Origin: an uncultured bacterium
Lineage (GTDB): Bacteria; Patescibacteriota; Saccharimonadia; Saccharimonadales; 2-12-FULL-41-12
Direction: 5' to 3'
DNA length: 64,000 nt
Assembly (NCBI GenBank): GCA_963834265.1
Contig: CAWIAU010000001.1
Coordinates: 263,572-327,571, forward strand
Shown: positions 2,111 through 13,198 of the stretch, in pieces
Numbering within the stretch: the first letter of the stretch is position 1
Layout of the letters: each line of letters starts with the position of its first letter
Notes under the pieces: model-generated
What the model saw: only the letters and a program-made list of their open reading frames with translations
Database searches by the model: none
Told to the model about the DNA's origin: nothing
Translations under genes and position numbers: made by a program

Positions 2111-2140
2111 TTGACCCGAGGGGGCAAAGTACGCTATGCT
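2111..2140 (+). promoter_or_regulatory. candidate sigma70-type promoter for 16S rRNA
   Basis: TTGACC (2111-2116), an 18-nt spacer, then TATGCT (2135-2140), about 145 nt upstream of the 16S 5' end. Confidence 0.5.
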
Positions 2141-2285
2141 AGTCCGAATGGCTTGACGTGGGTCTCTATGAGTCTCTCTGAAATAGTCCATTTTGTTCGT
2201 TAAAAATTTAGATAGTGCAAATCAACGTCAGTTTTTGAATTTGTTTTTTGAATGTCAGTTTACTGACGCTAAGAATTAAATTCTT

Positions 2286-3754
2286 TTTTGAAGAGTTTGA
2301 TCCTGGCTCAGGATGAACGCTGGCGGCGTGCCTAATACATGCAAGTCGAGCGGTAAGGCCTCTTCGGAGGTACACGAGCGGCGGACGGCTGAGTAACGCG
2401 TAGGAACGTACCCCAAACTGAGGGATAACTGCTCGAAAGAGTAGCTAATACCGCATGTGCTCTAAGGAGTAAAGCTTCGGCGGTTTGGGAACGGCCTGCG
2501 TATGATTAGCTTGTTGGTGAGGTAAAAGCTCACCAAGGCGACGATCATTAGCTGGTCTGAGAGGATGATCAGCCAGACTGGGACTGAGACACGGCCCAGA
2601 CTCCTACGGGAGGCAGCAGTAGGGAATTTTCCACAATGGGCGAAAGCCTGATGGAGCAACGCCGCGTGCAGGATGAACCCCTTCGGGGCGTAAACTGCTT
2701 TTATATGTGAAGATTTTGACGGTAGCATATGAATAAGGATCGGCTAACTCCGTGCCAGCAGCCGCGGTCATACGGAGGATCCAAGCGTTATCCGGAATTA
2801 CTGGGCGTAAAGAGTTGCGTAGGTGGCATAGTAAGCAAAGTGTGAAATTGTGTGGCTCAACCATACACACATACCTTGAACTGCTAGGCTGGAATATGAG
2901 AGAGGTAGCTGGAATTCCTTGTGTAGGAGTGAAATCCGTAGATATAAGGAGGAACACCGATGGCGTAGGCAGGCTACTGGCTTATTATTGACACTAAGGC
3001 ACGAAAGCGTGGGGAGCGAACGGGATTAGATACCCCGGTAGTCCACGCCGTAAACTATGGATGCTAGCTGTTATTCGTATCGACCCGAGTAGTAGCGAAG
3101 CTAACGCGTTAAGCATCCCGCCTGTGGAGTACGAGCGCAAGCTTAAAACATAAAGGAATTGACGGGGACCCGCACAAGCGGTGGAGCGTGTTGTTTAATT
3201 CGACGGTAAGCGAAGAACCTTACCCAGGCTTGACATCCTGCGAATCACTCCGAAAGGAGAGAGTGCTTTATTGAGCGCAGTGACAGGTGCTGCATGGCCG
3301 TCGTCAGCTCGTGTCGTGAGATGTTTGGTTAAGTCCATCAACGAGCGCAACCCCTATAGTTAGTTGAATTTTTCTAGCTAGACTGCCTTGGTAACAGGGA
3401 GGAAGGAGGGGTCGAAGTCAGGTCAGTATTGCCCTTATGCCTGGGGCTACAAACACGCTACAATGGCCGGTACAAAGGGCTGCCAACCCGCGAGGGGGAG
3501 CAAATCCCATCAAAGCCGGTCCCAGTTCGGATAGCAGGCTGAAACTCGCCTGCTTGAAGTCGGAATCGCTAGTAACGGTGAGTCAGCACATTACCGTGAA
3601 TACGTTCCCGGGTCTTGTACACACCGCCCGTCAAACCATGAAAGTCACCAATACCTGACGTCTTAGCTAGTCTAGGCCTAAGGTAGGGGGGATAATTGGG
3701 GTTAAGTCGTAACAAGGTATCCGTACCGGAAGGTGCGGATGGATTACCTCCTTT
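2286..3754 (+). rRNA. rrs: 16S ribosomal RNA (~1.47 kb)
   Basis: AGAGTTTGATCCTGGCTCAG starts at 2292. Also present: GTGCCAGCAGCCGCGGTCA at 2752-2770, GGATTAGATACCC, and a 3' end ..GGATTACCTCCTTT carrying the anti-SD. Confidence 0.96.
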
Positions 3755-3944
3755 CTAGGGAGAAAACTAGCACAAAATCGTAGCAATACATTTTGGAGCT
3801 AGGTCGGTCTTGGTACATCGTGAAATCAGTACTGACGATGTACATTTCCTTCATTATTGCTTGCGAGAATGAAGGACGAGATATCAGTTTCTGTAATATA
3901 GACTCGCACGTTTGATTTGCACTATCCAGATTTTTAACTAATAA

Positions 3945-3971
3945 GCGCCCCATGCGATAGGGTGCTTTTTT
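3945..3971 (+). terminator. rho-independent terminator downstream of 16S
   Basis: Stem GCGCCC (3945-3950) pairs with GGGTGC (3960-3965, one G-U pair) and is followed by T6 (3966-3971). It lies just after the 16S 3' processing-stem strand. Confidence 0.6.
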
Positions 3972-4015
3972 AGTACTCATGGTTAGCGGATAAAAATTTG
4001 CTATGCTGAGCCTAA

Positions 4016-4498
4016 ATGGCAGAGATAACACCCACTCCCCGAAAGCATAAATGGCATAATCTGGGAACTGATTTACTAAAAGTTACGGTAGCTGCCTTTT
4101 CAGATAGAATTGGTGATCAGCCGGGCGATTTATCTTTGGAGAGTTACGAAGCTAGCTTATTAAAGGCACTCCCAGATGCCGCACACCGGAGGCAGCAATT
4201 AATTGCGGGGCTTCAAGACCAGGCATTTGCCCAGCGGTTTCGTGCGCTTCCTTGGAGCAACCAAAATTTCATTGCTGCCCACTTGGCGCAAGCAGGCCCA
4301 ATGAGGGTAGGCCATTTAGCAATCAGGTTAGCGCAATTAGCGGGCGGCGAAACAGAGCACCTTAATGATGCGCATGTAGTTATAAATTTCTACGACACTA
4401 TCCACCGTGCCGATGTCATACCTGCTTTGCAAACCCTCAGTACATTAGTTGTTGCCAACAGTATGGATTTGCCGTCTCGGCATCCTGCTAATTCTTAA
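4016..4498 (+). CDS. hypothetical protein (160 aa)
   Basis: ATG ORF with no competing frame and no family I recognise. An extended -10 (TGcTATGCT, 3999-4007) sits 8 nt upstream of the ATG, suggesting a leaderless transcript. Confidence 0.45.
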   Translation: MAEITPTPRKHKWHNLGTDLLKVTVAAFSDRIGDQPGDLSLESYEASLLKALPDAAHRRQQLIAGLQDQAFAQRFRALPWSNQNFIAAHLAQAGPMRVGHLAIRLAQLAGGETEHLNDAHVVINFYDTIHRADVIPALQTLSTLVVANSMDLPSRHPANS

Positions 4499-4642
4499 GA
4501 AGTTAGCTTGATTTGGCGCTGGCTAGAATTTTAACAAGAAAAGTTCTCTCATGCAGGATGTTTTTAAAATTTATAACGGATCCAAAACTGAAATTATGTT
4601 TCTATACGTGCTACCCTGAACATACGCTCAGCATTTCGAAGA

Positions 4643-11040: not shown

Positions 11041-11301
11041 CCGTCACAGTGTTTATCACTGCGGCTTGAGAATGTAGCGCCAGTTTTCTTTTCAGAAAAC
11101 AACAGAAGCGATGATGAGTTTTTAACTTCTCTAAAGTCGCCCTGTATAAACGAGTAAAAAAGATTCTGTCTGATACTTCAATTCCTTCGCCGGAAGCTTC
11201 GGCTTTGGCATGGAAGCGATAGTGTCCGATAGAATTTCATTGAGATTGAGAAGAAAGCTGACCTCTATAAGCACATACTTTGGTAAGTACTGTGACGGGG
11301 C
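11041..11301 (+). other. 23S helix-63-region expansion / possible intervening sequence (~260 nt)
   Basis: Closed by an 11-bp stem CCGTCACAGTG (11042-11052) / TACTGTGACGG (11289-11299). It replaces a helix of about 45 nt between GGGAtAAGG.. and ..AACTGTTTAccAAAAACACAG. Confidence 0.6.
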
Positions 11302-12181
11302 CGCAGCTAAGGAACCCATGGAACTGTTTACCAAAAACACAGGTCTCTGCTAACACGAAAGTGGATGTATAGGGGCTGACTCCTGCCCGGTGCCGGAAGG
11401 TTAAGGGGAGCGCTTTACGGTGCGAACTGAAGCCCCGGTGAACGGCGGCGGTAACTATAACCGTCCTAAGGTAGCGAAATTCCTTGTCAGGTAAGTTCTG
11501 ACCTGCACGAATGGAGTAATCATATGGGTACTGTCTCAACGAAGAGCTCGGTGAAAGTGCATTGACGGTAAAGATGCCGTCTGTCCGCAGCAGGACGAAA
11601 AGACCCTGTGCAGCTTTACTACAGCTTGACATTGAATCGAGCTGCAACATGTGTAGTATAGTTGGGAGACTTTGAAGCCCGGACGCTAGTCCGGGTGGAG
11701 TCGTTAGTGAAATACCAACCTTGTTGTAGTTTTATTCTTACCGAACCCTTTATGGGTAAATAAGATATTTATTTTGTTTATCTATACAGGGTTCGGAACC
11801 GTGTCTGGTGGGTAGTTTAACTGGGGCGGTTGCCTCCTAAAGAGTAGCGGAGGCGTTCAAAGGTTGGCTAGTTACGGATGGAAATCGTAATGATAGTGCA
11901 TACGCATAAGCCAGCTTGACTGTGAGGCCTACAAGCCAAGCAGGGACGAAAGTCGGAGTAAGTGATCCGCTGTCCTTACATTTATGTAAATGAACGTGGG
12001 ATCGACAGCGCAAACGGATAAAAGTTACGCCAGGGATAACAGGCTTATAGCGCCCAATAGTTCACATAGACGGCGCTGTTTGGCACCTCGATGTCGGCTC
12101 ATCTCATCCTGGAGGGGGAGCACCTTCCAAGGGTCCGGCTGTTCGCCGGTTAAAGAGGTACGTGAGCTGGGTTCAGAACGT

Positions 12182-12595
12182 AAATTACATTGCGTTCTAC
12201 TCTCGAGAGGGAGTAATGTGCTGATTAACATCGAATCATTAGCACTAAAACTAACTAAAATCGGTGAAACCCTATCTGGATTCGAACGTTCTAGAGGGCG
12301 ATACCGAGGGTAAGCGCCAGTGTAATGCTGGTTTGATCCCGTAGAGACTGATCTGGAAAACTTGCCTAGTAAGCATGTGGAACAGTGAGAATGATTGCTT
12401 TTGCAAGATTTCATACGTTAGCCCCTTAACTATTACAACTTAGGTTAAGGGTGAAGATATAGTCCACGCCAATAGTAATATTGGATAAAGCTCGCTCTTT
12501 GTCTTAATAGGGAAAAGGAGCAGCCCGACAAAATGTATTCCATTTTGCCGGCGCGATGAGGAAAAACCGCAGGTTGTTCCTCATGAGTGTACGTG
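12182..12595 (+). mobile_element. group I intron (414 nt, no ORF) inserted after 23S U2593 (E. coli numbering)
   Basis: The exon junction restores GGGTTCAGAACGT|CGTGAGACAGTTCGG. The 5' exon ends in U and the intron ends in G (12595). The internal guide GCGTTCT (12192-12198) pairs with exon AGAACGT, including a U-G pair. An S-element AAGATATAGTCC-like core (GAAGATATAGTCC ~12453-12466) and a P7 partner AGAGACTGA are present. Confidence 0.85.
12509..12595 (+). repeat. structured motif copy B (3' terminal domain of the group I intron)
   Basis: AGGGAAAAGGAGCAGC-[26-nt hairpin]-GCGCGATGAGGAAAAACCGCAGGTTGTTCCTCATGAGTGTACG. Confidence 0.7.
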
Positions 12596-13050
12596 CGTGA
12601 GACAGTTCGGTTTATATCCGCTGTGGACGTCAGGAAATTTGAGAGGATTTGCCCCTAGTACGAGAGGACCGGGGTGAACGCACCGCTGGTGTACCAATTG
12701 TCATACCAATGGCATCGTTGGGTAGCTATGTGCGGAACAGATAAGCGCTGAAAGCATATTAAGCGCGAAACTGACCTCAAGATTAGATTTCCCTATGAGG
12801 GCCCTGATAGACGATCAGGTTGATAGGTACACGGTGTACGCATAGCAATATGTTTAGCCTAAGTATACTAATAGCCCCACAGATTTTTTGTGAACCATGA
12901 GACCAATTTACTTCGGTGAGTTGATCTCATGGGAATGTATTTGGCTAGTTATTTGTAGTAACTAATAAACAACGTCCGTTTATATTAACTTTTGTCAGTC
13001 ATATCGACACCACATGGACACCGAGTGAGTGAGACTTACGCCTCCCTCCC

Positions 13051-13162
13051 TCGGTGCCCATGGCGCGAGGGAAACACCTGTTCCCATCCCGAACACAGCA
13101 GTTAAGCCTCGCAGCGGTTACAATACTTGGGTTTTAACCCTGGGAAAATAGCACGGTGCCGA
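13051..13162 (+). rRNA. rrf: 5S ribosomal RNA
   Basis: Helix I TCGGTGCC/GGTGCCGA. Conserved CCCATCCCGAACACAGCAGTTAAGCC (loop B/helix III region). 112 nt. Confidence 0.9.
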
Positions 13163-13173
13163 TTTATATAGAA

Positions 13174-13198
13174 GGAGACCTGAAAAGGTCTCTTTTTA
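13174..13198 (+). terminator. rho-independent terminator after 5S
   Basis: GGAGACC (13174-13180), loop TGAAAA, GGTCTCT (13187-13193, last position unpaired), then T5. Confidence 0.75.

Follow-up and report, generated by a model that had tools for sequence, protein, structure and literature searches.

The canonical ribosomal RNA (rRNA) operon of the E. coli type has the order 16S-tRNAIle-tRNAAla-23S-5S, without a terminator after the 16S gene and without dedicated tRNA or 23S promoters. Split loci, with the 16S gene apart from the 23S-5S pair, are found in Rickettsia, Thermus and Helicobacter, among others. Buchnera, Wolbachia and Borrelia are further cases (cited in Lui et al., PMC8172020). 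Brewer et al. (10.1101/705046) have shown that unlinked rRNA genes are widespread and that the Patescibacteria form a mostly unlinked cluster, where "unlinked" means that more than 1500 nt separate the 16S gene from the 23S gene. In a related survey, Lui et al. (PMC8172020) scored 27 of 34 circularised genomes of the Candidate Phyla Radiation (CPR) as unlinked and noted homing endonucleases in the spacers, with two circularised Saccharimonadia genomes scored as "operonic". Here we describe the single rRNA locus found in a 64,000-nt stretch of an uncultured Saccharimonadales bacterium (contig CAWIAU010000001.1, positions 263,572 to 327,571; hereafter the window). This locus is probably not one operon but a set of three autonomous transcription modules: a 16S unit, an antisense tRNA unit and a 23S-5S unit.

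The three rRNA genes lie on the plus strand in canonical order. The 16S gene (2285-3754) is a full-length match to the Rfam model SSU_rRNA_bacteria (1481.6 bits), the 23S gene (9161-12892) has 3732 nt including insertions (LSU_rRNA_bacteria, 2478 bits), and the 5S gene occupies 13050-13164 (5S_rRNA, 89.4 bits). Between 16S and 23S are 5406 nt (3754 to 9161), which place the locus among the unlinked ones by the distance threshold of Brewer et al. (10.1101/705046) and also in class D, "unlinked by distance", of Lui et al. (PMC8172020), where more than 2000 nt and opposite-strand genes lie between the two; the rationale of that class is that intervening opposite-strand genes make one shared promoter implausible. 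That unlinked rRNA genes occur in CPR lineages, as a preliminary description of this DNA had stated, was already in print (10.1101/705046; PMC8172020). The spacer holds both tRNA genes of the classical pair, tRNA-Ala(UGC) at 8497-8573 and tRNA-Ile(GAU) at 8057-8133, each found by ARAGORN and Rfam and both on the minus strand. The 16S gene has the tail of gyrA and a GDPD gene upstream of it, and downstream of the 5S gene is a Fic gene. The GyrA protein is 78-86% identical at the amino acid level to that of Saccharimonadales metagenome-assembled genomes (MAGs), which identifies the genome as one of the Saccharibacteria.

The comparison drew on 200 Saccharibacteria loci, of which 80 came from genomes, with gyrA as the anchor, and 120 from metagenomes, where the anchor was the Saccharibacteria-specific 5' end of the 23S gene. 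The synteny of gyrA and 16S is widely kept in these relatives, and many MAG contigs break off within the 16S gene. A generic promoter and terminator scan of the region missed both the 23S promoter and the 16S terminator, and comparative tests were used instead.

The first module would run from a promoter at 2111-2140 through a leader and the 16S gene, held within a processing stem, to an intrinsic terminator at 3943-3973. The promoter consists of TTGACC (2111-2116), an 18-nt spacer and TATGCT (2135-2140), and scores 9/12 in a consensus scan. Its motif, TTGACn-16..18-TAnnnT within 330 nt upstream of 16S, is present in 69 of 74 loci, against 7.9% of control windows. The processing stem is formed by a 5' strand at 2193-2228 and a 3' strand at 3908-3944, the latter with a conserved TGACGTTGATTGCACT box. 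Its core is the longest inverted repeat of the region (I1; arms 2193-2225 and 3912-3944, 33 nt, 88% complementary). The stem recurs in relatives, with covariation at pair 18/69 (seven sequences have AU, five GC and one UA). Folding of the whole flanks gives a duplex with a z-score of only -2.4, as long flanks pair promiscuously, and the argument for the stem therefore rests on the core and its conservation. Within the 5' strand, at 2198-2209, the sequence CGTTAAAAATTT resembles a boxA, a label that we infer from the motif. The terminator has a hairpin at 3943-3967 and a U-run at 3966-3971, and folds at -15.5 kcal/mol in a 51-nt window (z = -2.65). A hairpin of -9 kcal/mol or lower with a T-run, at most 110 nt after the 16S 3' stem box, is found in 44 of 47 loci compared with 5.7% of control windows; in five more loci that the stem box pattern missed, the hairpin is visible by eye. 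The stems of these terminators vary in sequence between loci while hairpin and T-run persist, as expected of a conserved structure.

The third module, on the same strand, would be made up of a promoter at 8775-8803, a leader hairpin, the stem-enclosed 23S gene, the 5S gene and a terminator at 13162-13205. The promoter reads TTGACC (8775-8780), a 17-nt spacer and TAAGCT (8798-8803), the latter preceded by TG (TGcTAAGCT). Its clade-specific core, TTGACCGCCyCTGT with a -10 box TAnnnT, is found in 107 of 113 loci, with a spacer of 17 nt in 97 of the 106 cases scored, and it is kept whether tRNAs, a 16S gene or unrelated DNA lies upstream. A conserved leader hairpin follows (8813-8864, CTTGAGTTTAGGC ... 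GCGTAAACTTCAGG); its box CTTGAGTTTAGGC, about 25 nt downstream of the promoter, is found in 106 of 117 loci. The 23S processing stem has its strands at 8977-9027, with the conserved CAAACGGC...CCAATAACTAGTCAAT, and at 12935-12986, the latter seen in both the inverted repeat and the duplex fold. It contains the second-longest inverted repeat of the region (I2; arms 8994-9027 and 12935-12968, 34 nt, 85% complementary), and the extended duplex stands well apart from shuffled sequences (z = -7.6). After the 5S gene comes a perfect 20-bp hairpin (13162-13205, -29.2 kcal/mol, z = -8.0) that is stable on both strands; a hairpin with a T-run follows 5S in all 25 loci scored. In the preliminary description, promoter-like elements with the same cTTGACC -35 box had been placed at 2111-2140 and 8775-8803, the stems at 2199-2228 / 3908-3938 and 8977-9019 / 12943-12986, and the terminators at 3945-3971 and 13174-13198. 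Every one of these elements is present, at those coordinates or within a few bases of them, and the comparison with relatives marks them as conserved and not as matches by chance.

Conservation at the 23S promoter goes further than its two boxes. In nearly all of the loci compared, namely the window (8745-8803) and those of 107 relatives, the spacer reads CGCCyCTGTT. Some 15 nt upstream stands another conserved block, for example AGTTTGACAGCA or AATTTAGCATCA. Such conservation beyond the -35 and -10 boxes suggests a binding site for a regulator or an UP-like element. At the other end of the unit, a minus-strand open reading frame (ORF) at 13507-13893, with no family match, converges on the 5S terminator, and the palindromic hairpin may also end its transcription.

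The pair of tRNAs forms a third unit, overlooked in the preliminary description, with its own conserved promoter. It is read on the minus strand, towards the 16S gene, and would comprise a promoter at 8654-8626, tRNA-Ala(UGC), tRNA-Ile(GAU) and a tRNA-like tail at 8002-7884. The promoter has TTGTGG, a 17-nt spacer and TAGAAT, and diverges from that of the 23S gene. An aligned TTGnnn-17-TAnAAT stands upstream of the first tRNA in 51 of 59 loci, in both orientations of the pair.

At the sequence level, each rRNA unit thus has its own promoter and a terminator lies between the units, while the layout of the canonical operon is broken by antisense tRNAs and by a terminator and two promoters between 16S and 23S. 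The likeness to the E. coli type is in the gene set itself, in the tRNA pair (Ile-GAU and Ala-UGC), in stems of the RNase III type, and in a boxA-like motif in leader and spacer. The differences are the 16S terminator, the promoters for tRNAs and 23S, and the antisense tRNAs with Ala before Ile. We infer that the motifs act as promoters and terminators in vivo, and hence that 16S and 23S-5S have separate primary transcripts. Each rRNA would still be excised by means of its own RNase III-type stem, and the stoichiometry of 16S to 23S-5S would depend on two promoters that are alike yet independent, and not on co-transcription. As in Buchnera, Wolbachia, Rickettsia, Borrelia, Thermus and Helicobacter, the 16S gene would be transcribed on its own and 23S-5S from a promoter of its own, and each rRNA retains its flanking stem for processing. 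In those genomes, however, the genes are usually tens to hundreds of kb apart and the tRNAs of the internal transcribed spacer (ITS) have moved elsewhere, whereas the modules of the window lie within 11 kb, in the ancestral order and beside a conserved gyrA neighbour. With the published unlinked CPR loci the window shares a 23S-5S pair kept together, opposite-strand genes and a nuclease gene in the spacer, and a small-genome, probably symbiotic host lineage. Those surveys were based on distance and strand only (10.1101/705046; PMC8172020). Here promoters and terminators are mapped and found conserved also in compact loci, and the ITS tRNA pair is a separate unit that is often inverted in the clade.

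If a locus counts as unlinked when over 1500 nt lie from the nearest edge of 16S to that of 23S, the 79 23S-anchored loci that can be scored divide into 54 unlinked and 25 linked ones, and among 16S-anchored loci 8 of 11 are unlinked; the unlinked arrangement is the common state in the clade. The distances form a graded series from 747 nt to 11,123 nt. In the 28 loci with 1500 nt or less, the 16S terminator is present in all 28, the tRNA promoter in 26 and the 23S promoter in 25, with all three together in 24. Since these signals are found in compact loci too, it is not the 5.4 kb gap that splits transcription, and the comparison suggests that separate transcription preceded physical separation. 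With somewhat less confidence than for the window itself, though still on the favourable side, we propose that the Saccharibacteria rRNA locus may be no operon even where its genes are less than 1 kb apart: it would consist, in nearly every member, of three self-contained promoter-to-terminator modules. Uncoupling would have come first and permitted inversions, swaps of order and multi-kb insertions, and the window would be a late stage of a series from compact to dispersed.

The tRNA unit has three arrangements. Among 59 loci the plus-strand order Ile>Ala is found in 25, plus-strand Ala>Ile in 15 and minus-strand Ala>Ile in 19, including the window; the minus-strand order Ile>Ala occurs in none of them. 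The cassette of the window matches the plus-strand cassette of one relative (L031), in reverse orientation. Since minus-strand pairs are always Ala>Ile, and given this reversed match, the window seems to hold an [Ala>Ile] cassette that was simply inverted along with its promoter. Close sisters differ in their tRNA state (L031/L159, L132/L199, L085/L170), and the states are interspersed on a rough neighbour-joining tree built from the 23S gene (its first 700 nt), a crude tree that serves as an indication only. Rearrangement of the cassette therefore seems to be recurrent across the clade.

Debris of tRNA-Ile surrounds the intact gene. A 5'-half fragment (8167-8206, minus strand) lies upstream of it and is 90% identical to 8096-8135 (direct repeat D2), 3'-part fragments lie downstream at 7991-8009 and 7884-7904, and a 19-nt inverted repeat (8040-8058 / 8135-8153) flanks it. 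Fragments of tRNAs likewise adjoin the cassette in L025, L097, L139 and L170. They may be the footprint of duplication-and-loss or of recombination events that swap the order of the tRNAs. Directly downstream of tRNA-Ile, on the same strand, is a structured element of about 118 nt (7884-8002), here called element X, which has a scaffold like the 3' half of a tRNA and carries in its T-loop a conserved insert of about 86 nt with three hairpins. Homologs are found in L163, L172 and L111, and over the four sequences 18 of 42 predicted pairs have compensatory changes. The 3' end of the element copies the neighbouring tRNA: tRNA-Ile in the window (21 of 21 nt), and an Ala-like ...CTCCACCA in the others. 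It has no Rfam match, and a permissive Rfam threshold gave nothing else in the spacer. A covariance model built for it (R1) found only these four, with no more copies in 1.66 Mb of related loci and in viral contigs. The idea that it is a piece of a phage attP site was dropped, as 14 pattern matches in viral contigs are at chance level and none fits the covariance model.

Between the 16S unit and element X, and so between the first module and the second, are 3.9 kb of lineage-specific and mostly decaying DNA (3976-7883). This cargo has no nucleotide match in the 200 related loci, whereas the 16S trailer, the tRNA cassette and the 23S leader that flank it do have matches, and its G+C content falls to 0.31-0.33 in parts. 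Its first gene is an orphan on the plus strand (orf160, 4016-4498) that has no Pfam, PHROGs or NCBIfam match, no tblastn match in the related loci and no recorded called gene. It is followed on the minus strand by a degraded HNH-WYL endonuclease gene (4590-5485; HNH ORF 4856-5368, Pfam HNH E = 1.9e-12), which has lost its N-terminal hydrophobic segment and whose C-terminal part is interrupted by a diverged internal tandem duplication of about 228 nt at 4643-4837 (direct repeats D1/D4/D6/D9, 90-100% identity). The exact protein is recorded on a 720,390-nt NCBI/ENA contig. An intact HNH+WYL protein of 220 amino acids (P0008) in the same 90% cluster comes from a short-read contig of sample ERR12037361, beside a different neighbour. 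A homing endonuclease that had inserted itself into the spacer was considered and rejected, because the gene is truncated by the duplication, its homologs are HNH-WYL proteins of which the only recovered context (L201) is without rRNA, and tblastn gave no match in the 200 rRNA loci.

Next on the minus strand are two pseudogenes. One is a stop-to-stop fragment of a GNAT acetyltransferase (5452-5940, Pfam Acetyltransf_1 E = 7.6e-8), and the other is a S-adenosylmethionine (SAM) methyltransferase broken over three frames (6364-6772), with one fragment matching Pfam Methyltransf_25 (E = 7.7e-6). On the plus strand follow a DUF1905 pseudogene (6914-7200, C-terminal fragment, Pfam E = 6e-10), with an in-frame TGA at 6929 and a frameshift at the G-run 7030-7032, and orf154 (7408-7872). 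The latter has a promoter at 7343-7371 (TTGACA-17-TATAGT, 11/12; 7343-7872 with the gene) and no family match in Pfam, PHROGs or NCBIfam, and its exact protein is found also on a Logan contig; for the GDPD protein, too, exact matching gave only short Logan contigs. Beside an identical orf154 on a short-read contig of ERR12037361, an intact DUF1905 gene of 95 amino acids is called; the difference from the broken copy is due either to heterogeneity among strains or to errors in the consensus of the source assembly. It was considered that the frameshifts might be homopolymer sequencing errors, two of them being at AAA and GGG runs. Given the in-frame TGA in DUF1905, the diverged duplication and the intact large ORFs nearby, real decay is more likely, though not proven.

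It had been proposed that the spacer is a landing pad for mobile or decaying DNA, with its protein genes, pseudogenes and tRNAs on the strand opposite to the rRNA genes. The genes, pseudogenes and antisense tRNAs are there, but both strands are coded: the HNH gene, the GNAT and methyltransferase pseudogenes and both tRNAs on minus, and orf160, the DUF1905 pseudogene and orf154 on plus. The landing pad holds in part. The cargo is unique to this genome, low in G+C and rich in pseudogenes, with a broken HNH-WYL gene. On the other hand, no integrase, recombinase or transposase is found among the spacer ORFs scanned with Pfam, PHROGs and NCBIfam, and in relatives this gap is occupied by ordinary genes that are intact, among them those for a HAD phosphatase and a NUDIX protein and for membrane and secreted proteins. 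Also against a landing pad, GNAT homologs of 31-35% identity are found in the same 16S-tRNA gap of L056/L098, L142 and L166, three other lineages. The recurring gene, read from the strand that does not code for 16S, occurs in lineages whose tRNA arrangements differ, and the L142 copy carries a fused NUDIX domain. The gene may have resided in the spacer for a long time.

How the cargo arrived is a question of its own. Genomic islands and prophages that integrate at tRNA genes leave an att duplication of the tRNA 3' end, and the cargo could be the decayed remnant of such an element, inserted at the 3' end of tRNA-Ile, instead of the product of piecemeal accumulation or inheritance. A perfect 21-nt direct repeat of that 3' end (7884-7904 and 8057-8077), of which none is expected by chance, lies downstream of the intact gene, and the cargo, foreign-looking with its nuclease gene, low G+C and pseudogenes, begins immediately past it. 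In L172, about 30 nt that follow tRNA-Ala recur after element X in an att-site-like pattern. We nevertheless regard this origin as unlikely. Unlike at known integration sites there is no integrase or recombinase among the cargo ORFs scanned, the repeat is not found again at the cargo's far end near 3976, and its two copies enclose only 152 nt. The repeat in the window is moreover part of the conserved element X, which ends like tRNA-Ala in other genomes, and the GNAT gene at the same position in three other lineages suggests that some of the cargo is of old standing and was inherited vertically.

Some observations weigh against separate transcription units. Promoter-like sites are not enriched in the region (11 found, 18 expected from shuffles); as the generic scan is uninformative by itself, the promoters are weak evidence on the window alone and their reality rests on conservation. 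Set against the clade consensus TAnnAT, the -10 hexamers of the window (TATGCT and TAAGCT) are weaker. The strength of the 16S terminator is moderate, with an 8-bp stem that includes a G-U pair and a 9-nt loop. That loop (3951-3959) is often conserved, as yTGCGAGA in many loci and GCGATA in the window, and the hairpin may thus also serve processing or binding besides termination. The boxA-like motifs in both leaders, the second at about 8921-8934, could recruit antitermination factors and give some read-through. The relatives are all MAG or metagenome contigs, which are biased in assembly around rRNA genes, and the case as a whole rests on sequence motifs and their conservation.

These points could be turned into a single operon with a very long ITS, transcribed from the 16S promoter with boxA-aided read-through of 3943-3973 and on through 5.4 kb to 23S-5S, the internal promoter being supplementary. 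The canonical order of 16S, 23S and 5S on one strand would fit such an operon, as would the moderate terminator and the boxA-like direct repeat (D5) shared by the two leaders. Read-through would, however, yield antisense RNA to both tRNAs as well as to three genes of the minus strand, and idle signals are hard to square with their conservation (terminator 44/47, 23S promoter 107/113). Many relatives, furthermore, have no 16S gene within 5-11 kb of the 23S gene, or none on the contig, and the same promoter is kept. We consider a single long operon very improbable, and presume that the 16S terminator is not overridden by the boxA-like sequences at 2198-2209 and about 8921-8934. The reading of the preliminary description, a genuinely unlinked arrangement and not a long ITS, is strongly supported though not proven by the conserved positions of both terminators (after 16S and after 5S) and of the 23S promoter, and by antisense tRNAs with a conserved promoter of their own.

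A misassembly that wrongly joined the 3.9 kb cargo, or one junction, into a compact rRNA locus is very improbable. In its favour, the cargo is unique to this genome, neither junction is spanned by the short-read contigs of ERR12037361, which cover only pieces (about 283-2223 and about 6787-7913), and that sample also yields the intact DUF1905 and the intact HNH-WYL in a different neighbourhood. Against it, two misjoins would be needed, one falling exactly on the border behind the 16S terminator and the other exactly on that at element X, relatives have independent insertions of 1-4 kb at the same place (L056/L098, L161, L177, L041, L137, L160), the internal duplication is diverged (90-93%) and not identical as an assembler copy would be, the surrounding giant ORFs of 2853 and 3863 amino acids are intact, which argues for a clean assembly, and the source contig is 720 kb long.

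These ORFs lie at 18827-27388 and 29681-41272, respectively, and the longer one has a tandem periodicity of about 993 nt, seen as a ladder of 324-amino-acid antisense ORFs. The 23S gene itself is about 800 nt longer than the Rfam model. A block of about 410 nt (12172-12591) is absent from five relatives, and overlapping it, 12172-12485 gives a sub-threshold match to a group I intron (38 bits, E = 2e-7). A second block of about 250 nt (11041-11299), also absent from relatives, has a 21-nt inverted repeat at its flanks (11038-11058 / 11281-11301), and two more expansions of about 70-80 nt each are found in the 5' domain. A c-di-GMP-II match inside the 23S gene is below the Rfam threshold and was treated as chance.

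Taken alone, this locus is one more unlinked rRNA arrangement of the kind documented in the CPR. What is possibly new is that the compact loci carry all three signals too (24/28), with the terminator in every one. A full-text search within the library of papers used found no description of a terminator after 16S or of private tRNA and 23S promoters in Saccharibacteria, which is not proof of novelty. The result gives a testable idea on how rRNA operons break up, in which physical separation looks like the consequence of an earlier transcriptional split and not its cause. Distance thresholds such as 1500 nt would then under-count loci that are functionally split, and methods based on long 16S-ITS-23S amplicons would fail or be biased for most Saccharibacteria.

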